DNA from: an uncultured Chloroflexia bacterium
Lineage (GTDB): Bacteria > Chloroflexota > Limnocylindria > Limnocylindrales > CSP1-4
Reading direction: 5' to 3'
Length of the DNA stretch: 64,000 nt
NCBI GenBank assembly: GCA_963778155.1
Contig: CAVZTK010000021.1
Location: 1,162,871-1,226,870 of the forward strand
The notes below the pieces were generated by a model, which made no database searches, was not told the DNA's origin, and worked only from the letters and a program-made list of their open reading frames with translations. Shown here in pieces: positions 301 through 62,584 of this stretch; the stretch's first letter is position 1; each line of letters begins with the position of its first letter. Position numbers and translations under genes: made by a program.

Positions 301-1610
301 ACCTGGCACCGCCGATCCCGCGGCTCGAGCGGCTCCGCCGCGACGGCGACCCGAAGACCGCCGATCCGCGCACCACGGCCAACCGGACACCGGTCAAGAG
401 CCGCGCCGGGGCGCTCCGCCGGGAGCGCCACCAGGCCGACTACGTGATCCTGGTGGTCGTCGTGGCTCTGACCGCGATCGGCATCCTGATGGTCTACTCG
501 TCGTCGGCGCTCAAGGGCTACCTGTCGCAGGACGCCGATACCTTCGCGACGGTCGGGCCCCAGATCCAGTGGGCCATCCTGGGCTTCGCCGCGATGCTCG
601 TGATGATGCGGGTGGACTACCGCTATCTCCGTCTCGCATCCGTGCCGCTGTACCTGATCGCCATCGCCCTGCTCATCCTCGTCTTCGTTCCCAGCCTGAA
701 CATCGTCGTCGGCGGCTCCGCTCGCTGGCTCAAGCTCGGTCCGCTGCCGGCCATCCACCCGGCCGAGTTCGCCAAGCTCGCCCTCGTCATCTACCTCGCC
801 CACTGGTTCGCCAAGCGGGGCGGCGGCATCCGCGGCTTCTGGGGCGGAACGGTCCCGTTCCTGATCATCGTTGCGCCGGTCATCGCCCTGGTCTTCAAGG
901 AGCCCGACCTGGGCACGACCGGGGTCATCACTCTGACCGCGTTCACGATGTTCTTCGTGGCCGGCGCGAACTTCTTCCACCTCGCGGTGATGGCCGCGGG
1001 CGGGCTGATGGCGATGTTGATGGTCGGCCTGCAGTCGTACCAGACGGACCGCATCCTGGTCTGGCAGAACCCCTGGCTCGATCCGCTCGGGAAGGGCTTC
1101 CACACCATCCAGGGGCTGCTCGCGTTGGGCGTCGGCGGCCTGGTCGGGACCGGCCTCGGCGCCAGCCGCGTGTCGGTGCCCAATGCCTTCAACGACTTCA
1201 TCTTCGCCGAGGTCGGCCAGGAGTTCGGGCTGATCGGCGGGATCGTCGTCATCACCCTGTTCCTGCTGCTGGCCTACTCCGGGGTGCGAGTCGCGCTCGC
1301 GGCGCCCGACACGTTCGGGGCGCTGCTCGCAGCCGGCATCACCGCCTGGCTGTGCCTCCAGGCGTTCATCAATATCGGGGTCGTCGTGGCCCTGCTGCCG
1401 ATCACCGGGATCACCCTGCCGTTCATCAGTGCCGGCGGGTCATCCCTCATCATCAGCTTCGCCGCGGTCGGGATCCTGTTGTCGATCTCGCGCGAGACCG
1501 TGGAGAAGGGGACGTGGAACGACGATGCGATTGCTGATCGCGGCGGGAGGGACGGGCGGACACATCTACCCGGCGCTCGCCGTCGCCCGCTCGCTCGGCA
1601 CGACGCCTGA
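297..1610 (+). CDS. ftsW: FtsW/RodA/SpoVE-family peptidoglycan glycosyltransferase (cell-division FtsW by context)
   Basis: 437-aa polytopic membrane ORF with SEDS-type motifs (NPWLDPLGKGFHTIQGL, LPITGITLPFISAGGSS). Lies between murD and murG. The last ~86 nt overlap murG. Confidence 0.9.
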   Translation: MNLAPPIPRLERLRRDGDPKTADPRTTANRTPVKSRAGALRRERHQADYVILVVVVALTAIGILMVYSSSALKGYLSQDADTFATVGPQIQWAILGFAAMLVMMRVDYRYLRLASVPLYLIAIALLILVFVPSLNIVVGGSARWLKLGPLPAIHPAEFAKLALVIYLAHWFAKRGGGIRGFWGGTVPFLIIVAPVIALVFKEPDLGTTGVITLTAFTMFFVAGANFFHLAVMAAGGLMAMLMVGLQSYQTDRILVWQNPWLDPLGKGFHTIQGLLALGVGGLVGTGLGASRVSVPNAFNDFIFAEVGQEFGLIGGIVVITLFLLLAYSGVRVALAAPDTFGALLAAGITAWLCLQAFINIGVVVALLPITGITLPFISAGGSSLIISFAAVGILLSISRETVEKGTWNDDAIADRGGRDGRTHLPGARRRPLARHDA

Positions 1611-2687
1611 GGCCCCGGAGCTGCGCTGGCTGGGCGGGCACCGCGGGCTCGAGGCGTCCATCGTCCCCGCAGCGCATATCCCCCTGCGCCGCCTGGCTGC
1701 TCGCTCGCTGCGAACCACCGAGGCCGACGTCCACGCGATCCTCGACCCGATCCGCCTCGGGCTGTCGGTCCCGCAGGCGACCGCCATCCTCGTCCGCGAG
1801 CGGCCGGCGGCCATCTTCACGACCGGCGGCTACGTCGCGCGTGCCCGTCCTCATGGCGGCTGCGCCGCTCGGCATCCCGGTCGTCCTGTGGGACGGCAAC
1901 GTGATCCCGGGCCGGGCGGTCCGCGCCACGGCCCGGCTGGCGGCCGCCCTGGCGGTGTCGTTCGATGCCACCTGCCGGGCGCTTGCCGGCGCCGGCGCGG
2001 GGCGCCCGTGCTACGTGACCGGCACGCCCATCCGTGAGATCGATGCGATCGACCGGGTCGCCGCGCGGCTGCGGATGGACATCGACGCGGGTGAGCGCGT
2101 CCTCCTCATCTTCGGTGGCTCGCAGGCGGTGCGGCGGTTCAACGCTGCCGTGGCCGAGGCGCTGCCCCGGCTGGTCGAGCGGGTGACCGTCCTGCACGTG
2201 ACCGGTGACGAGGGGTACGCCGCGGCCCTGACCGGCCGCGAGATCCTGCCCGAGTCCCTCCGCCGTCGCTACCGACCGTATCCGTTCCTGCGCGACGAGA
2301 TGCTGGCGGCCCTCGCGGCCGCGGACCTGGTGGTCGGCCGGGCGGGATCATCGACGCTCGCCGAGGTGACGGCGCTCGGACTGCCGATGGTCGTCGTTCC
2401 GTATCCGCACGCGGCAGGGCACCAGCGCGCCAACGCGGTGAGCCTCGTGGCGGCCGGCGCCGCCCGGCTGGTCGAGGACGACGCGTTCGATGCCGCGGCG
2501 CTGCTCGAGGCGGCGGCACTTCTCGACGACCCGGCGGCGCATGCCGCGATGTCGGCTGCGGCGCGTGGGCTGGGCAGGCCGGGTGCTGCCGACGCGGTCG
2601 CCGAGCTCGTCATGGCCGCAGCCGTGAGCGGTGCCGTTCCCGGACCCGGCCGAGGTCGAGCGGCGCTCCCGGGGTCGCGCCGCGTGA
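1525..2687 (+). pseudogene. murG: MurG (undecaprenyl-PP-MurNAc-pentapeptide GlcNAc transferase), frame break near 1836-1841; 3' end uncertain
   Basis: MRLLIAAGGTGGHIYPALAV... runs to ...TTGGYVA in frame 1, then PVLMAAAPLGIPVVLWDGNVIPGRAV... and GRAGSSTLAEV... continue in frame 2. As sequenced it runs on into murB without a stop. A GTGA at 2684-2687 suggests a second hidden break near 2630-2650. Confidence 0.8.
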
Positions 2688-3649
2688 TCGCCGGCTTCGA
2701 CGCGATCGCCACGGGGACCGACATCCAGCGCCGGATCGGGGTCAAGACCTCGCGCGACGAGCCGCTGGCGCGGTTCACCACGATGCGGGTCGGCGGACCG
2801 GCCGACCTGTTCGCGACGGTCCACAACGCGCACGAGCTGCGCGCCCTGGTCCGCTTCGCCCGGACCCGCGGCCTGCCGCATGTCGTGCTCGGGCGCGGCA
2901 GCGACCTGGTCATCGCAGACGCCGGGATCCGCGGGCTGGTGATCCAGGTCCGGGCGGAGGGATCGCGGACCGTCGGCGATCGCTACACCGCCGAGGCCGG
3001 CGTCCAGATGGCGCGGGCTGCGACCGAGACTCAGCATGCCGGCCTGACCGGGCTCGAGTTCGGGCTGGCCATCCCCGGCACGGTCGGCGGGGCCGTGTGG
3101 GCCAATGCGGGCGCCCACGACGCCGACATGGCAGGTGTCCTCGAGTCGGCGCGCGTCCTGCAGGCGGACGGGACCGAGGTCATCGTCCCGGCAAGCGAGC
3201 TGGGGCTGTCCTATCGCGACAGTCGGTTCAAGCGTGCCGGCCACGACGCCGTCGCCGATGCGCCGCGCGACGTGGTGGTCGACGCGACGTTCCGCCTCGA
3301 GGAGGCTGACCCGGACACGATCAAGGCGCGGCTCGACGACATCCGCCGCTGGCGGCAGGCCCACCAGCCGCTCGGGCTGCCATCGGCGGGCAGCGTCTTC
3401 CGCAACCCGGCCGGCGATTCGGCCGGCCGGCTGATCGAGGCGGCGGGCCTGAAAGGGCTGCGCATCGGGGGCGCCGTCGTGTCCGAGAAGCACGCGAACT
3501 TCATCGTCAACGACCAGAAGGGTCGGGCCGCCGACGTCCGCCGCCTGGCCGAGCGGGTACGCGCCGAGGTCCTCGCCCGGCACGACGTCGACCTCGCCTT
3601 CGAGATCGAGTTCGTCGGCGACTGGTCCGGCTGGGAGGCCGCCGCATGA
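2684..3649 (+). CDS. murB: MurB (UDP-N-acetylenolpyruvoylglucosamine reductase)
   Basis: ...SRDEPLARFTTMRVGGPADLF..., GRGSDLVIAD, SAGSVFRNP and KHANFIVN motifs. Candidate GTG start at 2684. Stop overlaps the ddl ATG (ATGA at 3646-3649). Confidence 0.85.
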   Translation: MIAGFDAIATGTDIQRRIGVKTSRDEPLARFTTMRVGGPADLFATVHNAHELRALVRFARTRGLPHVVLGRGSDLVIADAGIRGLVIQVRAEGSRTVGDRYTAEAGVQMARAATETQHAGLTGLEFGLAIPGTVGGAVWANAGAHDADMAGVLESARVLQADGTEVIVPASELGLSYRDSRFKRAGHDAVADAPRDVVVDATFRLEEADPDTIKARLDDIRRWRQAHQPLGLPSAGSVFRNPAGDSAGRLIEAAGLKGLRIGGAVVSEKHANFIVNDQKGRAADVRRLAERVRAEVLARHDVDLAFEIEFVGDWSGWEAAA

Positions 3650-4764
3650 GCGGGAGGCCGCCGGTCGTGGTGCTGCTCGGCGGCCCGTCGGCCGAGCACG
3701 ATGTCTCGGTCGTGTCCGGAACGGCCATCGCCGAAGCCCTGGCCGGCGAAGGCCACTCCGTCGAGCAGGTCCTCATCGATCTCGACGGGGGCTGGTGGTG
3801 GCTCCCCGCCGGGCACCGCCGCGATGGCCGACCCGCGAGCGCCTACGACGACCCGGCATCGCTCGGCGCGAGCGGCCCGGTCGCGGTCGGGGCCGCCGTC
3901 GATCGGCTCGCGGCGGCGCGACCCGCACCGGTCGTCGTCATCGCCCTCCACGGCCCGTTCGGCGAGGACGGCACGGTCCAGGCCCTGCTCGAGGCCGCGG
4001 ACGTGCCCTACACCGGGTCGGGCGTCGCGGCCTCCGCGATCGGCATGGACAAGGTCATCTTCAAGCGCCTGTGCCGTGGGATCGGGCTCCCGGTCGTGGA
4101 CTGGCGCGAGGTCCATGCCGCGCGCTGGACGAGCGACCCCGCGGCTGTGCGGACCGAGCTGCTCGCCTTCGCCGCTGCCGCATCCGACCCACGCCTGATG
4201 GTCAAGCCGGCACGCCTCGGGAGCTCGGTCGGGATGACCCTGGTCCACGAGCCGGCCGAGCTCGACGCGGCGCTCGACACCGCGTTCCGTCACGACACGC
4301 TGGCCCTCGCCGAGACGTACATCGCCGGCGCGCGCGACCTCGAGGTCTCGGTCATCGGCAACGGCCCGGCGGACCTCGAGCTGTACGGGCCGGGCGAGAT
4401 CGTGTCGGGCCACGAGTTCTACGACTACGAGGCCAAGTACACCGCGGGGCTGTCCGAGACCTCGACCCGGGCCGAGGTCACCGACCGCCAGCGGGCGACG
4501 ATCCTCAAGATCGCCCGCGACGCGTACCGGGCCATCGGCGCCGAAGGGTTCGCCCGGATCGACTTCCTGCTGGCCGGCGAGGCGATCGTGCTGTCCGAGA
4601 TCAACACGATCCCGGGGTTCACCCCGATCAGCCTGTTCCCGACGATGCCGGCCGAGGGCGGCTATACCTTCGCGGCCGTCTGCAGCAGGATCGTCGAGCT
4701 GGCACTCGAGCGTCACGCGGCCCGCGCCCGGCCCGCCCTGACGCCGGCGGACCTCCCCCGATGA
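3646..4764 (+). CDS. ddl: D-alanine--D-alanine ligase
   Basis: 372 aa with VVVLLGGPSAEHDVSVVSG at the N-terminus and an ATP-grasp core (ALHGPFGEDGTVQALLE, KPARLGSSVGM, EINTIPGFT). Confidence 0.93.
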   Translation: MSGRPPVVVLLGGPSAEHDVSVVSGTAIAEALAGEGHSVEQVLIDLDGGWWWLPAGHRRDGRPASAYDDPASLGASGPVAVGAAVDRLAAARPAPVVVIALHGPFGEDGTVQALLEAADVPYTGSGVAASAIGMDKVIFKRLCRGIGLPVVDWREVHAARWTSDPAAVRTELLAFAAAASDPRLMVKPARLGSSVGMTLVHEPAELDAALDTAFRHDTLALAETYIAGARDLEVSVIGNGPADLELYGPGEIVSGHEFYDYEAKYTAGLSETSTRAEVTDRQRATILKIARDAYRAIGAEGFARIDFLLAGEAIVLSEINTIPGFTPISLFPTMPAEGGYTFAAVCSRIVELALERHAARARPALTPADLPR

Positions 4765-5642
4765 ACGGTCGTCCGGTGGCCAGCCGGAGCCGCACGCCGC
4801 TCCCCGGACGCCGGTCGCGCCGCGTGCGGCGGGCGTCCGCAGGCCTGTCGCCGGTCCGTGCCGGGGCCGGCCTGGTCATGCTCGCCACCGCGGCCGCGAT
4901 CTACGGCGTCGGCGCGTCGTCCGCCTTCGACTACCGGTCGATCCAGGTGACCGGGGCAGAGCTCACCGACCCCGCGGTCATCGAATCGGCCCTCGCCGTC
5001 GCCCGTGGCCAGAACCTGTTCGCGCTGTCCACCCGGTCGCTGGTCGCCGCCCTCGACGGGCTCCCGACGGTGCGCTCGGCCCAGGTCGAGGTCCGCCTGC
5101 CCGGGACGCTCGCGGTCACCGTCGACGAGCGCGTCCCCGTCATGGTCTGGCAGGTCGGGCAACGCCGCTACCTGGCCGACGCCGACGGCACCCTGTTCGG
5201 GCTGATGCCGGCCCATCCCCCGGCGGATGCCGCGAACCTGCCGGTCATCGACGATCTGCGGATCTCGGCAGCCGATCTCGACGTCGGCAAGCGGCTCGAC
5301 CCGGTCGACCTCGATGCCGCGACGCGGCTCGCGTCGCTGGTCCCGGGCGACCTCGGCAGCTCGGCCGTGTCCCTCGCGGTCAGCGTCACCGACGAGAACG
5401 GGTTCGTCGTCGGCACGAGGCCGGGCTCGTGGTCGGCGGTCTTCGGCTTCTACACCCCGAGCCTGCGCACGACCGACATGATCCCCGGCCAGGTCCGGCT
5501 GCTGCGCAGCCTGCTGACCGGTCGCGAGCCGACGGTCCAGCGGGTGGTCCTCGCCTCGGACACCGACGGGACGTACGTGCCGCGGGCGGCCCCATCGCCG
5601 TCGTCGGGGAAGTCGTCGGCGAAACCGAGCAAGTCGCCATGA
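4761..5642 (+). CDS. ftsQ: Cell-division protein FtsQ/DivIB (POTRA domain)
   Basis: ATG at 4761 overlaps the ddl stop. Basic N-terminus, one TM segment (GLVMLATAAAIYGV), then a POTRA-like IQVTGAELTDPAVIESAL...VEVRLPGTLAVTVDERVPV. Confidence 0.8.
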   Translation: MNGRPVASRSRTPLPGRRSRRVRRASAGLSPVRAGAGLVMLATAAAIYGVGASSAFDYRSIQVTGAELTDPAVIESALAVARGQNLFALSTRSLVAALDGLPTVRSAQVEVRLPGTLAVTVDERVPVMVWQVGQRRYLADADGTLFGLMPAHPPADAANLPVIDDLRISAADLDVGKRLDPVDLDAATRLASLVPGDLGSSAVSLAVSVTDENGFVVGTRPGSWSAVFGFYTPSLRTTDMIPGQVRLLRSLLTGREPTVQRVVLASDTDGTYVPRAAPSPSSGKSSAKPSKSP

Positions 5643-5706
5643 CGTGGCGCATGGTCGCGCCGTCGGGTAGCCTTGCCCAAACCACTGGAGCGAGGACGAA
5701 CAACCC

Positions 5707-6030
5707 GTGCTGCTGCCCCTGCTCGGACTCCTCGTGGGCGTCCTCATGGGCCTCGTCCTCAACGTCAATGTCGGGTTCGAACTCAGTCGCTATTCGGCCG
5801 TGGCGATCCTCGCCGCGCTCGATTCGGTGCTCGGAGCGGTCCGGGCCGAGCTCGACGGGGTCTACGACAATCGCATCTTCATCAGCGGGTTCCTGGTCAA
5901 CGCCATCGTCGCGGTGCTCCTGACATTCATCGGCGACCGGCTCGGCCTGGATCTCTACCTGGTGGCCCTCATCACCTTCGGCCTGCGCATCTTCGATAAC
6001 GTGGCTCTCATCCGGCGCCACTTCCTGTAG
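5707..6030 (+). CDS. sbp: Small basic membrane protein, DUF1290/Sbp family
   Basis: 107 aa, GTG start, hydrophobic. Sits between ftsQ and ftsA as sbp does in Bacillus-type dcw clusters. Motif YDNRIFISGFLVNA. Confidence 0.7.
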   Translation: MLLPLLGLLVGVLMGLVLNVNVGFELSRYSAVAILAALDSVLGAVRAELDGVYDNRIFISGFLVNAIVAVLLTFIGDRLGLDLYLVALITFGLRIFDNVALIRRHFL

Positions 6031-6065
6031 ACGACCTACACCCGCAACGGGAGACGAACGAAACG

Positions 6066-7298
6066 GTGGAACGAGAAGCGGTCCTGGTCGGCATCGACGT
6101 CGGCACGAGCAAGGTCTGCGCCCTCATCGGCGAGGTGAGCCGCGATGGCCGGCTGACGATCATGGGCCACGGCACCGTGCCGGCGTCCGGGCTGAAGAAG
6201 GGCGTCGTCATCAACATCGACCAGACGGTCCGCTCGATCGCGGACGCGGTCGAGCGCGCCGAGCGGCTGTCGGGCTGGAAGATCGACCGGGCGTTCGTCG
6301 GGGTCGGCGGCCAGCACGTCGAGAGCCTCAACTCGCGCGGCCAGGTCGCGGTCACCGCCCATCATCGCGAGGTCACCCGCGAGGACGTCAACCGCGCCAT
6401 CGAGGTCGCCCGGGCGGTGTCGATCCCGTCCAACCGCGACGTCCTCCACGTCGAGCGGCGCGGCTTCACGGTCGACGGCCAGGAGGGCGTCAAGGACCCG
6501 CTCGGGATGAGCGCGCTGCGGCTCGAGGTCGAGACCCACATCGTCACGGCGTCCGCGACCGCGGTCCAGAACCTGACCAAGTGCGTGGCCGCGGCCGGGG
6601 TCAAGATCGACGAGCTGGTGGCCAACTCCCTGGCCGCCGCCGAGGCGGTGCTGACCGAGACCGAGAAGGAGCTCGGCGTGGCGGTCGCCGACATCGGCGC
6701 CGGGACGATCGACCTGGCGCTCTTCCAGGACGGCTCGCCGTTCCACACCCGCGTCCTGCCGGTCGGTGGCGCGAACGTCACCAATGACGTGGCGATCGGG
6801 CTCAAGACCAGCATCCAGGTCGCCGAGGAGCTCAAGATCAAGCACGGCACCTGCGACCTGCGCCAGATCGACGACGACGAGCAGATCAGCGTGTCGGTCC
6901 TCGGCGAGGACGCCGGCCGGACGGTGAGCCGGCTCGAGGTGTCCCAGATCATCGAGGCCCGGATGCGCGAGACGTTCGAGCTGCTGCGCAACGAGATCCG
7001 GGCCGCCGGGGTCGGCATGCTCCCGGCCGGGATCATCCTGACCGGCGGTGCCTCGCAGCTGGCCGGCGCGGCCGAGCTCGGCCGCGAGGTCCTCGAGATG
7101 CCGGTCCGGGTCGCCGCGCCGTCCGGCATCGGCGGGCTCGTGGACACGCTCCTCACGCCCGCCTACAGCACCAGCGTCGGCCTGCTCCAGTGGGGCGCCG
7201 CGGCGCTGTCCGCCGGCGAGCCGAACCGCTACGAGTCGGCGCCGGTCGGTGGCGGCATGGGCCGCTTGCGCGACGCGATCCGGAACATCTTCCCGTAG
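6066..7298 (+). CDS. ftsA: Cell-division protein FtsA (actin-like ATPase)
   Basis: 410 aa with VGIDVGTSKVCALIGE, DIGAGTIDLALF, ILTGGASQLAG, and a C-terminal amphipathic tail GRLRDAIRNIFP. Confidence 0.93.
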   Translation: MEREAVLVGIDVGTSKVCALIGEVSRDGRLTIMGHGTVPASGLKKGVVINIDQTVRSIADAVERAERLSGWKIDRAFVGVGGQHVESLNSRGQVAVTAHHREVTREDVNRAIEVARAVSIPSNRDVLHVERRGFTVDGQEGVKDPLGMSALRLEVETHIVTASATAVQNLTKCVAAAGVKIDELVANSLAAAEAVLTETEKELGVAVADIGAGTIDLALFQDGSPFHTRVLPVGGANVTNDVAIGLKTSIQVAEELKIKHGTCDLRQIDDDEQISVSVLGEDAGRTVSRLEVSQIIEARMRETFELLRNEIRAAGVGMLPAGIILTGGASQLAGAAELGREVLEMPVRVAAPSGIGGLVDTLLTPAYSTSVGLLQWGAAALSAGEPNRYESAPVGGGMGRLRDAIRNIFP

Positions 7299-7711
7299 AC
7301 ACGCGCGAGCTGACGGTCCGCACCGGCCGCGATCGCGGGCTCGTCGACCTGACCGGCCGGTGCGCCGGGTTCGTCGCGGAGGCGTCGGGCGGCGACGACG
7401 GCCTGCTGTCGATCTTCGTCCCGCACGCGACCGCCGGCCTCGTCGTGGTCGAGATCGGCGCGGGCTCCGACGAGGACCTGCTGGCGGCGCTCGACCGCCT
7501 GCTGCCGCGCGACGAGCGGCTGTACCGTCACCGCCACGGGTCGCCCGGTCACGGCGCCGATCACGTCCTGCCGCTGCTCGCGCCGCCGTCGCTCACCGTG
7601 CCCGTCGTGGGCGGCCGGCTGGCCCTCGGGACGTGGCAGTCGATCTGCCTTCTCGACCCCAACGCCGACAACGACGTCCGGACCGTCCGCCTGTCCTGGC
7701 TGGCTGCCTGA
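7190..7711 (+). CDS. YjbQ/UPF0047-family protein; start codon unresolved
   Basis: Family-like sequence starts near 7295 (TRELTVRTGRDRGLVDLT...VPHATAGLVVVE...GRLALGTWQSI). There is no ATG/GTG/TTG near that point. The only in-frame start is GTG 7190, which overlaps ftsA by 109 nt. Confidence 0.65.
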   Translation: MGRRGAVRRRAEPLRVGAGRWRHGPLARRDPEHLPVDTRELTVRTGRDRGLVDLTGRCAGFVAEASGGDDGLLSIFVPHATAGLVVVEIGAGSDEDLLAALDRLLPRDERLYRHRHGSPGHGADHVLPLLAPPSLTVPVVGGRLALGTWQSICLLDPNADNDVRTVRLSWLAA

Positions 7712-7804
7712 GCGGTGCGTCCGGGCACCACCCGGACGCTCGAAAACGGTCGGAAAGGGCCGCGATCGGCGATGTTCGGGCGTCCACCGCGACCTGTCCG
7801 GCGG

Positions 7805-7810
7805 TATACT
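7805..7810 (+). promoter_or_regulatory. Candidate -10 box TATACT upstream of ftsZ
   Basis: A rare AT-rich hexamer in a GC-rich intergenic gap, correctly oriented ~100 nt upstream of the ftsZ ATG. The same 12-mer tatactccggcc recurs upstream of purA. Confidence 0.4.
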
Positions 7811-7912
7811 CCGGCCAACCCAACGGACCCGCTCAGCACCGGGAAAGGCCACCCGGGTCCAGACGAGCCACCGTCGCGCAGAATCCCCACGTGGGTCGCT
7901 GAGGAGAGCCCG

Positions 7913-9151
7913 ATGCCGTTGCGTTCCGATTCCGAGAACTTCGCGCTGATCCGGGTCATCGGTGTCGGCGGCGGGGGAAGCAACGCCGTCAACCGGATGA
8001 TCCGCGCCGAGATGATGGGGGTCGAGTTCATCGCCCTCAACACCGACGCGCAGGCCCTCCTGCAGGCCGACGCGCCGCACAAGATCCGGATCGGCGACAA
8101 GATCACCCGCGGTCTCGGAGCCGGCGGTGACTCGACCATCGGCCAGCGCGCGGCGGAAGAGGACTCGGAGAAGATCAGCGCGGCGCTCGTCGATTCGGAC
8201 ATGGTGTTCATCACCGCGGGGCTCGGCGGCGGGACAGGCTCGGGCGCCGCTCCCGTGGTCGCCCAGATCGCCAAGGAGACCGGCGCGCTGACCATCGGCG
8301 TCGTGACCAAGCCGTTCACGTTCGAGGGCGCCAAGCGCAAGCTCGTCGCCGAGAAGGCCGCCGAGGAGCTCAAGGCGCAGGTCGACACCCTGATCACCAT
8401 CCCCAACGACCGGCTCAAGGACGTCGTCCAGAAGAACACCAGCATCCTCGACGCCTTCCGGGTCGTCGACGACGTCCTGCGCCAGGGCGTCCAGGGCATC
8501 AGCGACATCATCACCATGCCTGGACTCATCAATCTCGACTTCGCCGACGTGCGCGCGATCATGCGCGACGCAGGCTCCGCGCTGATGGGCATCGGTCGCG
8601 CGACCGGCGAGAACCGCGCGGTCGAGGCCGCCCGCCAGGCGATCGCCAGCCCGCTGCTCGAGGTCGACATCGCGGGCGCCCAGGGCATCCTGTTCAACAT
8701 CACCGGCTCGTCGACCCTCAGCCTGTATGAGGTCACCGAGGCCGCCGAGGAGATCCGCGCGGCCGCCGACCCGGAGGCCAACATCATCTTCGGGACGAGC
8801 TTCAACGAGCGGCTCGGCGACGAGGTGATGATCACCGTCATCGCGACCGGCTTCGACGGCGGCAAGAAGCGTCACGTCAACCGTCACGAGGCGACCGCCG
8901 TGATGGACGAGGGGGCGATCGCCCGACCATCCCGCGAGCGCGACTTCCTCGAGGAGCTCCAGCGCCAGCGCGACGAGGTCGCCGACGGCGGGTCGTACCC
9001 GGGCCAGGCGCCGTCGCACCTCGATGACCAGGCCGCGGCCGTGGCCGCGCCGCGCGTCGAGCGGACCGTCGGCGAGCCGGTCCCGGCCAAGCGCTCGACG
9101 ACGTACGACGCGGACGACCTGGAGATCCCGAGCTTCCTCCGCCGGAAGTGA
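7913..9151 (+). CDS. ftsZ: Cell-division GTPase FtsZ
   Basis: ATG 7913 is preceded by GAGGAG (7901-7906). Motifs: [28 protein letters not shown], and the C-terminal peptide [12 protein letters not shown]. Confidence 0.95.
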
Positions 9152-9179
9152 TCCGGGCCGGCTTGCCGGCGATCAGCGC

Positions 9180-9908
9180 ATGACCGACCCAGCGTCCCGC
9201 GTCGAGACCTATCGCACCGCGCGCGAACGCGTCCTCGCCCGCATCGAGGCGGCCTGCGCGCGCGCGGGTCGATCGTCGGCCGAGGTGTCACTCGTCGCCG
9301 TGTCCAAGACCGTCGCCTCGGATGCGTTGCGCGACGCGGTGTCGGCCGGCCTCGATCGGCTCGGGGAGAACCGCGTCCAGGAGGGCGTCGCCAAGGCGCC
9401 CGAGGTCCCCGGCGCTCGCTGGGAGCTCGTCGGCCCGCTCCAGTCGAACAAGGCGCGCCGGGCGCTCGAGGTCTTCGACAGCATCCAGACCGTGGACTCG
9501 GTCGACCTCGCGCGGCGACTCGACCGGCTCGTGCCGGAGCTTCGGCCGGGTGCCCCGTACCCGGTCCTCCTCCAGGTCAATGTCGACGACGACCCGGCCA
9601 AGGCGGGGTTCGCCGTGGCCGACCTGGACGCCGCCCTCGACGACCTGCTCGGGCTGCCACACCTGGTGATCAACGGCCTGATGACCGTCGGTCGTCTGAC
9701 ATCCGACCCAGCGGAAGCACGACCGACGTTCCGCGGCCTGCGGACGCTGTCGGAAGCGTCGCGTGCCCGCCGGCCGGAGCTCGGTGCGGACCTGTCGATG
9801 GGGATGACCGACGATTTCGAGCTGGCCGTCGAGGAGGGCGCGACCATCGTCCGGGTGGGCCGGGCGCTGTTCGGCGAGCGGCCCCATCCGGACGAGCCGC
9901 ACGGATGA
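9180..9908 (+). CDS. yggS: YggS-family pyridoxal-phosphate homeostasis protein
   Basis: VSLVAVSKTV (PLP lysine motif), GENRVQE, LQSNKAR, LSMGMTDDFELAVEEGATIVRVG. Follows ftsZ, as is common. Confidence 0.88.
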   Translation: MTDPASRVETYRTARERVLARIEAACARAGRSSAEVSLVAVSKTVASDALRDAVSAGLDRLGENRVQEGVAKAPEVPGARWELVGPLQSNKARRALEVFDSIQTVDSVDLARRLDRLVPELRPGAPYPVLLQVNVDDDPAKAGFAVADLDAALDDLLGLPHLVINGLMTVGRLTSDPAEARPTFRGLRTLSEASRARRPELGADLSMGMTDDFELAVEEGATIVRVGRALFGERPHPDEPHG

Positions 9909-10004
9909 CCCGAGGGCGCCGACAGGCCCCTCGCGGACACGGCTGGTAGACTCGGGATCGATGCCGTTCGTGCAAGACGCCCATATGGCGCGCCTTCCGA
10001 GGTC

Positions 10005-10286: not shown

Positions 10287-10287
10287 T
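10282..10287 (+). promoter_or_regulatory. Candidate -10 box TATGAT for tRNA-Val
   Basis: AT-rich hexamer 15 nt upstream of the mature tRNA 5' end. Confidence 0.35.
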
Positions 10288-10301
10288 CGTCGGGCATCCC
10301 C

Positions 10302-10378
10302 GGGCGATTGGCTCAGTCGGTTAGAGCGCGCGGTTCACATCCGCGAGGTCACTGGTTCGAATCCAGTATCGCCCACCA
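10302..10378 (+). tRNA. tRNA-Val (anticodon CAC), CCA encoded
   Basis: Folds by hand: acceptor GGGCGAT/ATCGCCC, D stem GCTC/GAGC, anticodon stem CGCGG/CCGCG with loop TTCACAT, T arm ACTGG-TTCGAAT-CCAGT, discriminator A + CCA. Confidence 0.93.
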
Positions 10379-11195: not shown

Positions 11196-11199
11196 GGGC

Positions 11200-53428: not shown

Positions 53429-54302
53429 ATCCTTCCTGCGCTCGGGCAAGGTGCGCGACCTGTACGCGCTCCCGGACGGACGGCTCGCGCTCGTGGCCTC
53501 GGACCGGATCTCGGCCTTCGACGTCGTCCTGCCGACGGCGATCCCGGACAAGGGCAAGGTCCTGACCGGGCTGTCGCGGTACTGGTTCGGCGTGACGGGC
53601 GGCGATCGTCCCGAACCACCTCCTCGCGACGGACGCGTCGTTCGATGACGAGCTCCGCGGCCGGGTCATGGTCTGCCGGCCGACCGACGTCGTGCCCATC
53701 GAGGCGGTCGTCCGCGGCTACCTCGCCGGCTCCGGCTGGAAGGAGTACCGGGCGAGCGGCACGGTCTGCGGCATCGCGCTCCCGTCCGGTCTCCGCGAGA
53801 GCGACCGCCTGCCCGAGCCGATCTTCACGCCGGCGACCAAGGCCGAGCAGGGCGAGCACGACGAGAACATCGACTTCGAGACGATGGCCCGCCTCGTCGG
53901 CGCGCGAGCTCGCCGCTCGGGTGCGGGCGCACGCGATCGCGCTGTACGAGTTCGCGGCGGCCAGGACCGCAGCGGCCGGGATCCTGCTGGCCGACACGAA
54001 GTTCGAGTTCGGGATCGACCGCACGACCGGAGCAGCTCCTGCTCATCGACGAGGCGCTGACGCCCGACTCGTCGCGCTTCTGGGACGCCTCGACCTACGA
54101 GGCCGGCCGGGCTCAGGCCAGCTTCGACAAGCAGTTCGTGCGCGACTGGCTCGAGACCCAGCCGTGGGACAAGACCGCGCCGGGGCCGGAGCTGCCGGCC
54201 GACGTCGTCGACGGCACGCGGGCGCGCTACGTCGAGGCGTACGAGCGGATCACCGGCGCGAGCTTCGCGCGCTACCTCGAGGAGGACGTCATCGCCCCAT
54301 GA
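53412..54302 (+). pseudogene. purC: SAICAR synthetase, 3 frame breaks (~53600, ~53904, ~54031)
   Basis: [30 protein letters not shown] | [10 protein letters not shown]...[12 protein letters not shown]...[15 protein letters not shown] | [16 protein letters not shown]...[10 protein letters not shown] | [18 protein letters not shown]. Confidence 0.9.
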
Positions 54303-54592
54303 GCAGCTTCCGGTTCGCGGTCAACGTCACGCCAAAGCCCGGGATCCTCGATCCGGCCGGGCCGCGCGGTCGAGGGCAGCGCTCGGCCACCTCGGGATCG
54401 ACGGGATCCACGACGTCCGCGTCGGGCGGCGGGTCGAGCTGACGGTCGAGGCCGGGGATGAGGCGGAGCGCCCGGCCGATGGTCGAACGGCTCGCCACCG
54501 AGCTGCTGTCGAACCCGCTCATCGAGGTGTTCGCGATCGAGCCGCTCGGCGCGGCATCGTCCGCCGTCGCGGCCGGGGCAGGGGAGGGCTGA
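54299..54592 (+). pseudogene. purS: FGAM synthase PurS subunit, 3 frame breaks (~54362, ~54377, ~54468)
   Basis: [21 protein letters not shown] | RAVEG | [30 protein letters not shown] | [26 protein letters not shown]. Confidence 0.8.
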
Positions 54593-54594
54593 GC

Positions 54595-55337
54595 GTGCCG
54601 GTCCGCATCGGCGTCGTCGTCTTCCCGGGCAGCAACTGCGACCGCGACACGGTCCACGCGCTCGAGCTGGCCGGCGCGGAGCCGGTCGTCCTGTGGCACG
54701 AGCAGGCATCGCTCGAGGGCGTCGCGGCGGTCGTGCTGCCCGGCGGGTTCGCCTACGGCGACTACATCCGGGCCGGCGTGATCGCCCGGTTCAGCCCGGT
54801 GATGCGGTCGGTGGCGGCGTTCGCCGCCGAGGGCGGCCTGGTGCTCGGCATCTGCAACGGCTTCCAGGTCCTCGCCGAGGCCGGGCTCGTGCCCGGGGCG
54901 CTGCTGCGGAACGACACGTTGCGGTTCGCCGGCCACGACGTCCGGATCGCGGCCGAGCGACTCGACACGCCGTTCACGCACGCGCTCGACGCGCGCCGGC
55001 CGCTGCGGATGCCCGTCGCCCACGGGGAGGGGCTGTACTACGCGGACGACGCCACGCTCGATGCGCTCGAACGCGACGGTCAGGTGCTGTTCCGCTACGT
55101 CGACACAGCCGGGACCGAGGCGACGCCCCGGCGACCCGGCCAACCCGAACGGATCGCTGCGGGCCATCGCCGGGGTGCAGCAACGCGGCCGGCAACGTGG
55201 CCGGCCTGATGCCGCACCCGGAACGGGCGTCCGAGACGGTCCTCGGCTCCGACGACGGCTTCGGGATCGTCCGGTCGCTGGTCCTGAGCGCGGCGCGCGC
55301 CATCAACGAGCCGGCCGTCGCGGCGGGGTCCCGATGA
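54595..55337 (+). pseudogene. purQ: FGAM synthase glutaminase subunit PurQ, 2 frame breaks (~55128, ~55178)
   Basis: [16 protein letters not shown]...[10 protein letters not shown]...GICNGFQVL...FRYVD | [13 protein letters not shown] | [16 protein letters not shown]. Confidence 0.9.
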
Positions 55338-57730
55338 CCGTGGCCGAGCGACCGGTCGAGCCGCTCCATCGCCGGCTGGGCGTCACCGACGACGAGCTCG
55401 ACGCCATCCGCGAGCGGCTCGGCGGTCGCGATCCGAACGACCTCGAGCTCGCGATGTTCAGCGTGATGTGGAGCGAGCACTGCTCGTACAAGAGCTCGAA
55501 GCCGCTGCTCCGGACGCTCCCGACCGCCGGCGAGGGGGTCGTCGCCGGACCCGGCGAGAACGCCGGGGTCATCTCGATCGGCGACGGCCTGGCCGTCGCG
55601 TTCAAGATCGAGTCGCACAACCACCCGTCGGCCGTCGAGCCGTACCAGGGCGCGGCGACCGGTGTCGGCGGCATCCTGCGCGACATCTTCACGATGGGCG
55701 CCCGCCCGATCGCGGTGCTCGACGCGCTCCGCTTCGGGGAGCCGGGCTCCGCCCGGACGCGACATCCTCGTCGACGGCGTCGTCCGGGGCGTCGGCGGCT
55801 ACGGCAACTGCGTCGGTGTCCCGACGGTCGGCGGCGAGCTCGTGTTCGATCCGAGCTACGGCGGCAACCCGCTGGTCAACGTGATGGCCATCGGTCTGCT
55901 CGAGGAACGGCTGCTGACGCTGGCGGCGGCGCCCGGGCCCGGCAACCTCGTGGTGCTGTTCGGGTCGGCGACCGGCCGCGACGGGATCGGCGGGGCGTCC
56001 GTCCTCGCCAGCGCGACCTTCACGGACGACGAGACCTCGGGCGATGGCTCGCGGAGCGTCGCCTCGGACCTCGGTGGGTGATCCGCAGGCGCAGGTGCAG
56101 TCCAAGCGCCCGTCGGTCCAGGTCGGCGACCCGTTCGCCGAGAAGCTGCTCATCGAGGCGAGCCTCGAGCTCATCGAGCGCGACCTGGTCGAGGGCCTCC
56201 AGGACCTCGGCGCCGGCGGCATCACCTGCGCCACGTCCGAGACGGCCGACCGGGCCGGGACCGGGATCGCGGTCGACCTCGACGCCATCCCGCGCCGCGA
56301 ACCGGGTCTCGAGCCGTTCGAGGTGATGATCTCCGAGTCGCAGGAGCGGATGTGTGCCGCCGTCCTGCCCGACAAATGGGATGCGGTCCGTGACGTGTGC
56401 GAGCGCTGGGGCCTTCCGGTGGCGATCATCGGCCGGGTCACCGCCGACGGCGACATCACGGTCGTGACCGGTGGCCTCGAGCCGGACGGCCGCCTGGCGC
56501 GGGGCGCCCGGGTCCTGGCCCGGATCCCGGCCCGCGCGCTGACCAGCGACGCGATCGTCCACCAGCGCGTCGCCGCCGCCCCGACCCACAGCCGCGGCGC
56601 CCCGGCGCCGGGTGCGCCGGCGGCGGTCAGCGACCGGCTTCCCGAGCGCGGGATGGATCCGGGCGCGGTCCTCGTGGCGCTCCTCGGGTCGGCCAACCTC
56701 GCCTCGCGTCACGCCGTCTTCGAGCAGTACGACTCGACGGTCGGCGCGGACACGGTCGCCGGCCCGGGTCGCGGCGCCGCCGTCCTGCGCGTGCGGGGCA
56801 CGAGCAAGGCCCTGGTCGCGACGACGGATGGCAACCAGGCGATCGGCGCGGTCGATCCCTGGCTCGGCGCGGCGTGGTCGGTCGCCGAGGCGACCCGCAA
56901 CGTGTCGATCACCGGCGCCCGGCCGCTGGGCGTGACGAACTGCCTCAACTACGGCGACCCGACCCGACCGACGGCGTTCTGGCAGCTGTCGGAGGCCGTG
57001 CGCGGGGTCGGCGACGCGTGCCGCGCGCTGGGGCTCCCGGTGACCGGCGGCAACGTGTCGCTCTACAACGAGTCGCCGGCCGGGGCCATCGCCCCGACCG
57101 CGGAGATCGGCGTGGTCGGACTGCTCGACGACGTCGACACCCTCGTCGGCCCTGCGTTCGACCGCGTCCACGACGCCGTCGTGCTCGTCGGCGAGGTGGT
57201 CCCGGGCCTGGTCGGGTCCGCCTACACGGCGCTGGCGGGTGGCGCGAGCGAGGACGACCCGCCGGCCCTCGATCTCGGTCGCGAGGCGGCGACTCCAGGC
57301 GTTCGTCCGCGAGGCGATCGCCCGCGGCCTGGTCGCGTCGGCGCAGGACGTGTCGGGCGGCGGCCTCGCCGTCGCGCTCGCCGAGTGCGCGATGTGGGGC
57401 GGCCTCGGTGCGACGGTCCGCATCGCGGTCGAACACTCGCCGGCGGTCGACCTGTTCGGCGAGAGCCCGTCGCGGCTGGTCCTGTCGTGCCGCCCACGCT
57501 ATGCCGCCGCGCTCGAGCTGCTGGCACGCCAGCACGGCCTGCCGGTCGCGACCGTCGGCACGGTCGGCGGCGACCGCCTCGTGGTCGAGCTGTCGATGGC
57601 CGGCGCGACCGGCAACGTCGAAGACCGCGGCGGCGGCGTGGCCGATGCGCTCGAGGTCCCGCTGCGCGACCTCCGCCATGCCTGGGACCACGGCCTCGCC
57701 CGCGCTCTCGGCTGGGAGGGCCACTCCTGA
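55334..57730 (+). pseudogene. purL: FGAM synthase subunit PurL, 3 frame breaks (~55760, ~56079, ~57291)
   Basis: [18 protein letters not shown]...[24 protein letters not shown] | [14 protein letters not shown] | [14 protein letters not shown]...ISESQERM...GVTNCLNYGDP...GGNVSLYNE | LQAFVREAI...AQDVSGGGLAVALAE. Confidence 0.92.
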
Positions 57731-59183
57731 TGTGCGGCGTGTTCGGGGTCGTGCTGCCAGGTGGCGAGCCCAACGAGGCCGCCTCGATCGCCGCGCTCGG
57801 GCTGTTCGCGCTCCAGCACCGCGGCCAGGAATCGGCCGGTCTGGCGGTCAGCGACGGCGAGCAGCTGATGCTCTACAAGGACCTCGGCATGATCAGCTCG
57901 GTCCTCGACGAGCGGCGGCTGCCGAGCCTGCGCGGCCAGCTGGCCATCGCCCATTGCCGCTACTCGACGACCGGCTCGACGATCTGGGAGAACGCCCAGC
58001 CGACCTATCGGCTCGGGCCGCGGCGCGCTCTCGCGATCGGCCACAACGGCAACCTCGTCAACACGCGCGAGCTGCTCGACCAGCTCACGGGCGGCCGCGC
58101 CCGGCTGCCGGCGTCGACGGACACGGAGCTCCTGACCGCGCTCCTGGCCGACGAGCCGGCGGCCGACACGGTCGAGGCGCTCATGCGCGTCCTGCCGCGC
58201 GTCCGCGGCGCCTACAGCCTGGTCATCCTCGACGAACGTCGGGTCATCGGGGTCCGCGACCCGTTCGGCTTCCGGCCGCTCGTCCTCGGCCGGCTGCCGC
58301 GGGCCAGCGCGAACGGCGATGACGACGGGCTGTGGCAGGCGACGACGCGGACGCCGGCTGGTGCCTGTCGTCCGAGACGGCCGCGCTCGACATCGTCGGC
58401 GCCGAGTACGTCCGCGACGTCGAGCCCGGCGAGATGGTCATCCTCGAGCGCGGCCAGGCGCCGCGGTCGGTCCGCTTCGCGCCGGCGACGCCCGCCCTGT
58501 GCGTCTTCGAGCTGATCTACTTCGCCCGCCCCGACTCGTACATGGAGGGCCGCAACCTGTACGAGGCGCGACGCCGGATGGGCATCCAGCTCGCCCTCGA
58601 GCATCCGGCCGACGCCGACCTCGTGATGCCGGTCCCGGACACCGGCGCCCCGGCCGCGGCCGGCTACGCCGAGGCGTCCGGGCTGCCGTACCGCGAGGGG
58701 ATGTACCGCAATCGCTACACCGGCCGGACGTTCATCCAGCCGTCGGCGGCGCTGCGCCACCGGGGCGTGACCATCAAGCTCAACCCGCTGCGCGAGGTGG
58801 TCAACGGCAAGCGGCTGGTGGTCGTCGACGACTCGATCGTGCGCGGGACCACGACGAAGCAGATCGTCGCGCTGCTGCGCAAGGCCGGCGCGACCGAGGT
58901 CCACGTCCGCATCAGCGCGCCGCCGATCTACCACCCGTGCTTCTACGGCATCGACACGCAGATCGAGACCGAGCTGATCGCGGCGACCCACACGGAACCC
59001 GAGATCCGCGAGTTCATCGGCGCCGATTCGCTCGGCTACCTGTCGATCCGCGGCGTGCTCGCCGCCCTCGACCTGCCGTACGAGCGGTTCTGCTTCGCCT
59101 GCTTCGACGGCCACTACCCGGAGCCCGTGCCGTACGACGCCGCGAGCCGCAAGTTCATGCTCGAGGAGGCGGTGACCCGCTGA
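57730..59183 (+). pseudogene. purF: Amidophosphoribosyltransferase, frame change near 58325-58335
   Basis: MCGVFGVVLP...LQHRGQESAG...AIAHCRYSTTG...IGHNGNLVN | GWCLSSETAALDIVGAEYVRDVEPGE...VVDDSIVRGTT...CFYGIDT. Confidence 0.92.
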
Positions 59184-60341
59184 TGGCCGGGGCGAAGGGC
59201 GTCTCCGACCGCACCGCCTACCTGACGTCCGGCGTCGACGTCGCGGCCGGCGAGCGGGCCGTCGACCTGATGCGGGACCACGTCGAGTCGACCCGCCGGC
59301 CCGAGGTCGTCGGCGGGCTCGGCGGGTTCGGCGGCGCGATCGTCGATCCCGGCGGGCTATCGCGAGCCGCTGCTCGTCTCCTCGACCGACGGGGTCGGGA
59401 CGAAGACGGCGATCGCCCCGGCGCTGGACCGCTACGACACGATCGGCATCGACCTCGTCGCGATGTGCGCCGACGACGTCGTCTGCTGCGGCGCCGAGCC
59501 GCTGGCCTTCCTCGACTACGTCGCCGTCGGGCAGCGTCGTGCCCGAAGGGGTCGCCGAGCTGGTCGGATCGGTCGCCGCCGGCTGTCGCGAGGCCGGCTG
59601 CGCGCTCGTCGGCGGCGAGACGGCCGAGCATCCGGGGCTGATGGACGACGACGCGTTCGACCTGGCGGGCTGCTGCCTCGGCGTCGTCGAGCGCGACGAC
59701 GTCATCGACGGCTCCGCGGTCCGCGCCGGCGACGCGATCCTCGGCCTGGCGGCGTCCGGGCTGCACGCGAACGGCTTCTCGCTCGTCCGCGCGCTCGTCG
59801 CGCAGTGGGACCTCGATCTGATCGGCCGTACCAGGTGCAGCTGCGGCGGACGCTCGGCGACGCCGGGCGCGACGCGGCCATCGCGGCCGAGCCCGAACGA
59901 GGCGCTGGCGACCCTCGGCGACGTGCTGCTGACCCCGACCCGGATCTACGCGCGGGCGGTCCTCGCCGCCCGGGCCGCCTCCGGGCCGCCGGCGCGGACG
60001 TCCACGGCCTGGCCCACATCACCGGCGGCGGCCTGCCCGGGCAACGTCCCGCGGGCGCTGCCCGACGGCCTCGGCGGCCCGCGTCGACCCGGGTCGCTGG
60101 CCGATGCCGTCGGTCATGCGCGCTGTTCGGGGCGCTCGGCGGCCTCGACGACGAGGAGCTCCGGGCGACGTTCAACGGCGGGCTCGGGATGGTCGTCGTC
60201 CTGCCGCGAGCGGCCGTGCCCGCGGCGACGGCCGCCATCGAAGGGTTCGGGATCCCGTCGCGGTCGTCGGCGAGGTCGTGGACTCGGCGACGGTCGATGG
60301 CCGGCGCTACGCTCGAGGCGACCCTCGAGGGTCTGGCGTGA
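59183..60341 (+). pseudogene. purM: AIR synthetase, about 10 frame changes
   Basis: [37 protein letters not shown]...[22 protein letters not shown]...[63 protein letters not shown] and VAVVGEVV are each found in alternating frames. Confidence 0.88.
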
Positions 60342-60362
60342 CCGCGCGTCGGGCCGCCGGAC

Positions 60363-60948
60363 GTGGCCGGGCGGGTCGCGGTCGGCGTCTCGGGCGGCGG
60401 CTCGAACCTGCGCGCGCTGGTCGCCGCGGCCGATCGGGGCGAGCTCGGCGGCGACATCGCGCTCGTCTTCGCCGACCGGGCCTGCCCGGCGCTCGACTGG
60501 GCGGCGGAGCAGGGGATCGAGACGGCCCTGGTCCCGGGCGGTGACGACGCGACGCTGGCCGCCACGCTCGAGCGCCGTCGGCGCCGACGTCGTCGTCCTC
60601 GCCGGCTACATGCGCATCGTCGGGCCGGCGGTGCTCGGCGCGTTCGCCGGTCGGATCCTCAACACCCACCCGTCGCTCCTGCCGGCGTTCCCGGGCGCGC
60701 ACGCGGTCGGCGACGCGCTCGCCCACGGCGTGCCCGTGACCGGCTGCACGGTCCATCTCGTCGACGAGACCCTCGACGGCGGCCCGATCGTCGCCCAGGA
60801 GCCCGTGCGCGGTCCTGCCCGGCGACGACGAGGCGACGCTCCACGACCGGATCCGGGCGGTCGAGCACCGGCTCCTGCCGCGGGCGGTCGCCCTCGCTGC
60901 TCGCCGAGGCGCTCGCCGTCGACGGGCGCCACGTGACGCTGGACCTGA
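60363..60948 (+). pseudogene. purN: GAR formyltransferase, at least 3 frame breaks; 3' boundary unresolved
   Basis: [16 protein letters not shown]... | [17 protein letters not shown]...[14 protein letters not shown]...[17 protein letters not shown] | [22 protein letters not shown] | [13 protein letters not shown]. Confidence 0.78.
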
Positions 60949-62584
60949 CCGCGCGGACGCGCGCGTCCCCGTCCCTCGCCGCGCGCTGCTGTCCGTCTAC
61001 GACAAGACCGGCCTCGTCGAGCTCGGTCGCGGCCTCGTCGCCCACGGCTTCGAGCTCGTCTCGACCGGGGCGCACCGCGCGGGCCCTGCGCGACGCCGGC
61101 TTGCCGGTCACCGACGTCGCCGCCGTGACCGGCTTCCCGGAGATGCTCGACGGGCGGGTCAAGACGCTCCATCCGCGGATCCACGCCGGGCTCCTCGCCG
61201 ACCGCCGTCGGGCCGACCACCGGCGCCAGCTGATCGCCGCGGCGATCGCGCCGTTCGAGCTCGTCGTCGGCAACCTGTACCCGTTCGCGGAGGCGCTGGA
61301 GCGACCGGGGATCACGTTCGACGAGCTGGTCGAGGAGATCGACATCGGCGGGCCGTCGATGGTCCGCGCGGCCGCCAAGAACCACGCGAACGTCGCGATC
61401 GTGACGTCGCCGGCGCGGTACGACGACGGTCCTCGCCGCGCTCGACAGCGAGGGCGGCCTCGACGAGCGGCGCCGCGCGCACGCTGGCGATCGAGGCGTT
61501 CCGCCACACCGCCGCGTACGACGCCCGGATCGCCTCGGAGCTGCCTGCCCGGATGGTCGCGGCCGGCCTCCTCGACGGCGCCGCGACGGACCCGTATCCG
61601 GCGTCGCTGACGATCGGGCTCGAGAAGGTCGAGACGCTGCGCTACGGGGAGAACCCGCACCAGCCGGCAGCCCGCTATCGCCGGCCCGGGGCGACATTGG
61701 TGGATGGTCCGTTCGCGTCGCGCGCCGCCGCTCCAGGGCAAGGCGCTGTCGTACAACAACGTCCTCGACGCTGCCGCAGCCTCGGCGCTCGGGCGGGCCC
61801 TGCGCGGGCCGGGCGTCGTCATCGTCAAGCACACGAATCCGTGCGGCGCCGCCGAACGGACGACGCTCGCTCGATGCGTGGGATGCGGCGCTCGCGGCCG
61901 ACCCCGTCAGCGCCTTCGGCGGGGTCGTGGCACTGACCCGGCCGGTGGATGGCCCCGTCGCCCAGCCGGCTCGTCTCGATCTTCCTCGAGGTCGTCGTCG
62001 CGCCGGCGTTCGATCCTGACGCGCTCGAGGTCCTCGCCACCAAGCCGAACCTGCGGGTCGTGCTCGACGAGGCGCTCGCGGACGACGCCCCGCCGGCGGC
62101 GGCCCCAGACGCGACCGGCTCGATCCGGACAGCCGGCGGCGCGGTCCTCGTGACGGCCCCCGACGTCGCCGCAGACGACCCGGCGACGTGGGTCTGTGCG
62201 AGCCACCGCCCGCCGAACGACGCGGAACGGCTCGACCTCGACCTCGCCTGGCGGCTCGTCCGCGGCGTGACCTCGAACGCGATCGTCCTCGTCCGCGATC
62301 GCCGGCTGGTCGGCTTGGGCAGCGGCCAGACCTCGCGTGTCGACGCGGCCCGCCAGGCGGTCGCCAAGGCGCACGCGATGCTCGGCGCCGGCGCGACGAC
62401 GGGCGCCTCCTGTGGCTCGGACGCGTTCTTCCCGTTCCCTGACGCGGTCGAGGTCTGCCTGGCCGCCGGCGTCACCGCGTTCGCACAGCCCGGCGGCTCG
62501 GTGCACGACGCCGACGCGATCGCGGCCGTCGATGCCGCCGGCGCCACGATGGTCATGACCGGCACGCGCCACTTCCGCCACTGA
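60933..62584 (+). pseudogene. purH: Bifunctional AICAR formyltransferase/IMP cyclohydrolase, about 6 frame breaks; 5' boundary unresolved
   Basis: [16 protein letters not shown]... | [13 protein letters not shown]...[14 protein letters not shown]-like...[16 protein letters not shown] | ...AFRHTAAYD... | GENPHQ | [10 protein letters not shown]...[11 protein letters not shown] | ...SAFGGVVAL | FLEVVVAP...SNAIVLV...GLGSGQTSRVD...MVMTGTRHFRH. Confidence 0.88.

Follow-up and report, generated by a model that had tools for sequence, protein, structure and literature searches.

Mass pseudogenisation in host-restricted bacteria is exemplified by Mycobacterium leprae, where many housekeeping genes are interrupted and gene order is kept, and bacterial pseudogene decay is deletion-biased. 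Interrupted frames are also known from genomes assembled from Nanopore reads. The errors usually described for Nanopore consensus sequence are indels in homopolymers, leftover indels lead to frameshifted gene calls, and R10.4 bins below ~40-fold coverage still require short-read polishing (PMC9262707). The Microflora Danica long-read metagenome-assembled genomes (MAGs), from the same group, are Nanopore-only and were assembled with Flye (--meta --nano-hq) and one Medaka round without short-read polishing; their authors checked for Nanopore-associated errors and reported low coding density in lower-coverage MAGs (PMC12313526). The window analysed here, by which we mean a whole 64-kb stretch of a soil Chloroflexota MAG, contains 61 frame breaks in conserved genes for cell-wall synthesis, glycine cleavage, nicotinamide adenine dinucleotide (NAD) synthesis and purine synthesis, among others; these breaks are very probably a consensus artefact of a long-read-only MAG, and the real genes would be intact.

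The window resembles decay of the Mycobacterium leprae type in that many housekeeping genes are interrupted with gene order kept. Unlike such decay, it lacks a deletion bias, nonsense mutations, large deletions and any excess of replacements, and it comes from a soil bacterium rather than a host-restricted one, with intact neighbour genes and patches that cut across genes. With Nanopore-only indel errors (IDEEL test, proovframe, short-read polishing; PMC9262707) it shares single-base indels that fragment conserved genes, their occurrence in long-read assemblies, their absence from short-read relatives and the lack of accompanying substitutions; a break in a G7C5 run at 10567-10578 is a classic under-called homopolymer, as found in Nanopore-only assemblies. 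Unlike the usual Nanopore indels, however, 60 of the 61 events lie outside long homopolymers, insertions prevail by ~7:1 and the events are gathered in kb-scale patches. The Microflora Danica catalogue (PMC12313526) is the source of the window's closest relatives with Flye-style names, and its loci L019, L007, L011, L030 and L028 show the same +1-biased breaks, clustered in L019. In that paper, low coding density goes with low-GC genomes rich in long homopolymers, whereas the window, a putative member of the catalogue, has 72% G+C and almost no long homopolymers.

The window is densely coding, judged on third-codon-position G+C (GC3), and its G+C lies between 66 and 76% in 2-kb steps. Eight of ten predicted proteins from clean stretches are present by exact sequence in the public protein collection, and all eight are encoded on one 1,436,730-bp MAG contig (NCBI and the European Nucleotide Archive, ENA); a soil Chloroflexota contig of 1.44 Mb implies long reads. 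Protein-cluster relatives of the window proteins carry names of Chloroflexota, Limnocylindrales or Thermomicrobiales MAG proteins, and the window is a piece of a Limnocylindria (Chloroflexota) MAG. Among the closest loci are L001 (ENA assembly ERZ25039534, contig_6013) and L002 (ENA assembly ERZ25039543, contig_557, a 1.21-Mb contig), both with Flye-style names and 83-87% DNA identity to the window. When species-representative genomes were scanned with a fragment of purF, at least 80 syntenic loci came out, divided about equally between MAGs of the "MFD....bin" type, whose contigs have contig_N names, and short-read MAGs, whose names are of MEGAHIT or SPAdes style, and a scan of Joint Genome Institute (JGI) metagenomes with a gcvPA fragment gave at least 80 short-read contigs (15-25 kb covered, 79-87% identity). 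Breaks were called with a purpose-written frameshift-aware local protein-to-DNA aligner, which permits +1, +2, -1 and -2 shifts and was validated on a clean gene carrying artificial indels. Open reading frames (ORFs) of relatives aligned to the window served as references, namely 25 short-read metagenome contigs for 15-26 kb, the loci L001, L002, L163 and L164 for 39-42 kb and 22 short-read loci for 48-64 kb. Placement at the DNA level was based on 90-nucleotide segments aligned with up to 15 relatives.

An earlier first-pass annotation, made from the sequence alone, had counted about 60 frame breaks in conserved genes. The frameshift-aware alignment to the relatives' orthologues found 61, made up of 53 insertion events and 8 deletion events, and the genes are non-contiguous as that annotation had claimed, with counts, block limits and signs agreeing to within one or two events. 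The formal tally is 53 insertion versus 7 deletion events (binomial p 8e-10), in which the break at 10570 is unclassified; frame order and the G7C5 run let it be read as a one-base deletion. The claimed clustering in blocks is equally clear, as five blocks with a summed length of 15.5 kb hold 57 of the 61 breaks (3.7 per kb) and the remaining 48.5 kb hold 4 (index of dispersion 2.9 over 1-kb bins, p 1e-13). Within the window alone, breaks per kb follow G+C (Spearman 0.53, p 7e-6). By GC3 periodicity, the coding frame of the + strand switches again and again at 18-24.5, 39-41.5, 50.7-51.6 and 53.4-62 kb, and the breaks are backed by essentially all references that span them. The breaks and the intact control stretches are as follows.

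1838-1840, + strand: isolated +1 break in murG, with profile domains in two frames.
10567-10578, - strand: isolated break in a DinB-like gene, in G7C5; acts as one missing base.
18441, 18719 (T) and 18839 (G), + strand: block 1, breaks in a DUF2520/Rossmann-like gene, backed by 9/9, 10/10 and 11/11 spanning references.
20659-24262, + strand: block 2, 14 insertion events backed by 9-23 of 9-23 spanning short-read metagenome references; gcvT 20659 and 20986; gcvH 21355, 21528-9 (AC) and 21558; gcvPA 22155, 22244, 22511, 22740 and 22912; gcvPB 23599, 23610, 24023 and 24262.
30901, + strand: probable isolated +1 break in the C-terminal tail of an OppF-like ATP-binding cassette (ABC) ATPase, with a GC3 phase change at ~30.9 kb; weak.
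32330, - strand: isolated +1 break in an OppD-like ABC ATPase (373 amino acids in relatives), from five cluster relatives.
39383-41764, + strand: block 3, six single-base insertions from alignments to L001, L002, L163 and L164 and DNA alignments with 2-5 relatives; CN-hydrolase gene 39383 and 39736; NAD synthase gene 40276 and 40543; rsmI 41565 and 41764.
50787 (G), 51097 (T) and 51550 (T), + strand: block 4, three single-base insertions in purD, backed by 9/10, 9/9 and 10/10 references.
53603-61966, + strand: block 5, 31 breaks in purC, purS/purQ, purL, purF, purM and purN-purH; insertions at 53603, 53903, 54033, 54355, 54381, 54469, 55178, 55765, ~56034-56100, 57291, 59343, 59534, 59892, 60039, 60075, 60122, 60571, 60807, 60895, 61071, 61428, 61476, 61869 and 61966; one-base deletions at 58336, 59824, 59978, 60261 and 60946; two-base deletions at 55124 and 61719, which behave as +1.
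24300-39300, control: two oligopeptide ABC operons and neighbours, clean except for 30901 and 32330.
49200-50720, + strand, control: purA, intact; no supported break, 20 spanning references.
51990-53370, + strand, control: purB, intact; no supported break, between broken purD and broken purC.

In murG, the Glyco_transf_28 profile (positions 2-100) is matched in the frame of ORF 1429-2037 and Glyco_tran_28_C in that of ORF 1841-3649, and the three-frame translation reads ...FTTGGYVA up to the break and VPVLMAAAPLGIPVV... beyond it. Two fragments of the DinB-like gene match positions 1-62 and 127-161 of PF05163, and when joined they match 1-161 at 41 bits; the G7C5 at this site is the sole 7-base run in the window and the sole long-homopolymer event. 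The inserted bases of block 1 are missing from 15 relatives, and every inserted base of block 2 is found in the window only in the DNA alignments. The break at 32330 is a +1 at residue 302 in four relatives of 373 amino acids and at residue 352 in P0046 (417 amino acids), and that at 30901 is a +1 against the L002 orthologue, itself error-prone, at a site past the oligo_HPY domain in a non-conserved tail. Nearly all breaks of block 5 are backed by at least 85% of the 8-22 references that span them and most by all, with weaker figures at 54385 (6/8) and ~56034 (16/22). The load is uneven between neighbours, purF having one break and the adjoining purM nine, and one gene pair holds up to 11 frameshifts.

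The counts of the first-pass annotation hold at 18.47-18.84 kb (3 claimed, 3 found), 20.66-24.27 kb (about 14 and 14) and 50.79-51.55 kb (3 and 3), and come out slightly lower at 53.60-61.95 kb (about 33 claimed, 31 found) and at 39.38-41.77 kb (about 7 claimed), where six were recovered and the seventh, at ~41204, was not confirmed and falls on the nadE/rsmI junction. The isolated breaks that it had placed at 1838 (murG) and 10570 (DinB-like) are borne out by domains split across frames and the one at ~32328 by the five relatives, while that at ~30898 corresponds to the weakly supported 30901, with GC3 and one error-prone reference behind it. The missing bases seen in purF (~58330) and purM (~59818, 59965 and 60258) are indeed the one-base deletions at 58336, 59824, 59978 and 60261, and the T inserted in purD at 51097 recurs against 9/9 references. 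On the other hand, the missing base in gcvH at ~21535 proved to be a 2-base insertion (AC, 21528-21529) followed by a 1-base insertion at 21558, and the break given at 56079 is real but can be placed only between 56034 and 56100. The isolated break proposed at 45661 falls in a low-complexity stretch that L163 and L164 lack and for which neither an orthologue nor a family match was found.

The stretches that had been called clean are clean wherever references exist (ftsA-ftsZ-yggS, aconitase, both ABC operons, the antiporter, purA and purB). Seven predicted proteins from 24300-39300 are full-length in the protein collection, five of them matching the lengths of their cluster relatives within a few residues, and comparison of this stretch with L002 gave no break consistently on the window's side besides 30901 and 32330. 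The aconitase and NUDIX genes have no breaks against the 25 short-read metagenome references, and purA shows 3 unique replacements in 284 conserved columns.

At 49 sites a single window base stands opposite a gap in all aligned relatives, and at six sites the DNA alignments show a total of eight bases missing from the window. No pinned indel is shared with any of the 2-15 aligned relatives; since the nearest of them are only ~80-87% DNA-identical, this uniqueness taken alone would also be compatible with very recent events. The inserted bases (G 20, C 20, T 5 and A 4) have the genome's own composition. Sixteen of the 49 copy a neighbour so as to form a run of at least 2 (33%, versus 52% expected for a random base), two thirds are unlike either neighbour, and the 26 unambiguous insertions occupy the three codon slots 5, 11 and 10 times, which is no preference. 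Around the insertion sites no base is preferred at any position and no 4-mer is convincingly enriched, the sole notable one being GCGC (12 versus 3 expected) in a GC-rich context, so an explanation by methylation or a sequence motif was rejected. A homopolymer explanation likewise fails for 60/61 events, and for the 34 breaks at 50.8-62 kb the longest nearby run is 2-4 bases. Long homopolymers are strongly depleted in the window, with one 7-base run and two 6-base runs in 64 kb (G7 or C7 runs: 1 observed versus 25 expected from dinucleotide shuffles).

If the broken genes were decaying, their proteins should have drifted. At conserved columns (at least 90% agreement among at least 8 references), unique replacements amount to 17/1454 in the broken blocks versus 23/1537 in the clean parts, and the overall rate in the window is 1.7% versus 2.7%, 1.8% and 3.0% in the control loci L004, L007 and L008. 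No internal stop codons were found in the broken genes; in-frame stops lie only close to gene boundaries. The first-pass annotation, too, had reported no in-frame nonsense apart from one TGA created by an inserted T. In a gene pair that was drifting and had gathered 11 frameshifts, substitutions should far outnumber indels, and the lack of any excess argues against decay. Judged from these alignments, protein-level constraint on the broken genes is not relaxed. Additionally, the blocks disregard gene and pathway borders, affecting unrelated housekeeping pathways and sparing purB. Unpolished raw-read sequence is also unlikely, as it would raise substitutions similarly to indels and no excess is seen; the patches are consensus with mismatches removed and insertions retained.

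Short-read and long-read assemblies were compared over the same nine purine genes with the same references, counting events backed by at least 70% of the spanning references; this criterion replaced a lenient frameshift penalty with stop-to-stop ORFs, which was noisy (0-8 apparent events per short-read locus). Eleven short-read loci have 0-2 breaks each, 7 in total in ~56,000 codons, versus 2, 10, 2, 2, 6, 5, 33, 1, 8, 5, 2, 3 and 29 breaks in 13 long-read contig_N loci, the heaviest being L019 (33), L082 (29), L007 (10) and L030 (8). In 12 MFD loci +1 events dominate (about 61 versus 12), and in seven sister long-read loci 20/61 pinned insertions copy a neighbour, the same 33% as in the window. 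The affected genes of L019 and L002 differ from those of the window. In L019, purA to purL hold 27 of the 33 breaks, purF, purM and purN-purH are clean, and purA and purB, intact in the window, are broken; in L002 the ABC-transporter genes are fragmented where those of the window are intact. The error mode belongs to the data set rather than to the window. By position, the breaks of L019 lie at 1600-7400 and 15700-16900 and those of L002 at 7500-16400, and L082, L007, L011 and L030 also carry loads.

The insertion bias, the absence of a substitution or nonsense load, the uniqueness of the lesions and their technology-specific recurrence together lead to the reading of the breaks as a consensus artefact. 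Some stretches of the contig would have a poorly supported consensus, through low or strain-mixed read depth or as draft-quality remnants; within them spurious single bases would be retained at ~4 per kb while substitutions were corrected, and outside them the consensus would be essentially perfect. The choice of the first-pass annotation, patchy low-quality consensus rather than pseudogenisation, is supported in this form; gap filling as such is no more than a candidate cause, and the errors are not of the classic homopolymer type. Several points weigh against this reading. Errors concentrated in homopolymers, the classic Nanopore form, would be expected, whereas just one break lies in a long run and the insertions copy their neighbours less often than chance (33% versus 52%). 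That the window itself is a Nanopore, metaFlye and Medaka product without short-read polishing is most probable but inferred from its database neighbours, and the edges of the blocks may be set by coverage or by mixed strains. Finally, L082 comes from a different project and its technology is judged from the contig name alone.

Alleles of co-assembled strains written side by side could leave a spurious extra base unlike its neighbour, and soil populations are microdiverse. Such collapsed strain variation would explain the insertion bias, the deficit of neighbour copies (16/49) and the patchiness at once. Coding differences between strains, though, concentrate at third positions, and the codon slots of the insertions (5, 11 and 10) show no enrichment beside position 3; the idea is weakened by this result and we regard it as unlikely.

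Real, recent pseudogenisation would mean that accumulated frameshifts have cost the organism, or its dominant strain, glycine cleavage, NAD synthesis, RsmI and most of the de novo purine pathway. The breaks are truly in the deposited sequence, whole pathways are affected, and neighbouring genes are hit in blocks as if an operon had turned dispensable. Yet 53 insertions versus 8 deletions is the opposite of a deletion bias, the replacement rates and the lack of internal stops persist despite up to 11 frameshifts per gene pair, and neutral decay would yield several-fold more substitutions than indels. Further against it, no break is common to any of up to 15 relatives, purB (between purD and purC) and purA (upstream of purD) are intact and purF has a single break, and sister long-read MAGs are affected alike in other genes with short-read MAGs essentially free. 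Loss of these pathways is therefore very improbable.

Equally little credit can be given to the view that at least the dominant strain truly carries the extra bases in its DNA, as a very recent insertion-only burst in kb-scale patches. Such a burst might come, for example, from error-prone repair or replication on high-GC tracts, before substitutions accumulate; if so, a Limnocylindria bacterium of the soil would only now have lost the function of its purine, glycine-cleavage and NAD-synthesis genes. Recoding, with programmed ribosomal frameshifting or transcriptional slippage restoring the frames, would suit the predominance of +1 events and the otherwise well conserved proteins, but it has a negligible chance given up to 9-11 events per gene in unrelated genes with free neighbours, and it is effectively refuted by the lack of a common motif or enriched k-mer at the sites and of any event conserved in a relative.

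With a consensus artefact as the preferred explanation, the finding should be read as a warning about data quality rather than as biology, the genes being most probably intact. About a quarter of the window carries roughly 4 spurious indels per kb, so that gene callers will give fragmented or missing purine, glycine-cleavage and NAD genes, and metabolic reconstructions or pseudogene counts from such MAGs would be wrong. A large public catalogue of long-read genomes has the same signature in several of its species representatives (L019, L007, L011, L030 and L082). This mode differs from the homopolymer errors that are usually screened for, being insertion-biased, non-homopolymeric and, in the window and L019, patchy; its tracking of G+C applies to the window only. 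Fragmented genes in such MAGs call for frameshift-aware annotation or short-read polishing before gene loss is inferred.

The gene content of the window, in order, is as follows.

The genes ftsW, murG, murB, ddl, ftsQ, ftsA, ftsZ and yggS.
A tRNA-Val gene, the DinB-like gene, a gene for an AMP-binding enzyme and the aconitase gene; the tRNA-Val (CAC) lies at 10302-10378, + strand, directly beyond the 3' end of the broken DinB-like gene, which is encoded on the other strand.
The DUF2520 gene, the NUDIX gene and gcvT-H-PA-PB.
Two oligopeptide ABC operons.
The CN-hydrolase gene, the NAD synthase gene, rsmI, a Ca/H antiporter gene and ssb.
Purine genes: purA, purD, purB, purC, purS/purQ, purL, purF, purM and purN-purH.

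Downstream of its break, murG continues with its C-terminal part (Glyco_tran_28_C, residues 87-243) in the open frame 1841-3649 (+), and the same frame runs on without a stop into a complete murB (FAD_binding_4 and MurB_C, residues 322-592); from the sequence, this may be a fusion of MurG with MurB, or another error that went undetected may have removed the murG stop. The glutamine-dependent NAD synthetase of this clade is encoded by two adjacent, slightly overlapping genes, a CN-hydrolase gene followed by an NAD synthase gene (window 39160-41180, L001 7054-9074 and L164 2-1158), unlike the single fused protein usual in many bacteria; an error is not the cause, since L164, a short-read contig, has the two genes split as well. 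A 2.7-kb segment (43900-46600) is missing from the relatives L163 and L164. Two stretches, 43935-44900 and 45487-46593, encode two paralogues that have zinc-ribbon-like CxxC...CxxC motifs and match no family with confidence, and upstream of the second paralogue lies a low-complexity region rich in Ala, Pro and Glu with short tandem peptide repeats (AIEPAEAIEPA...).

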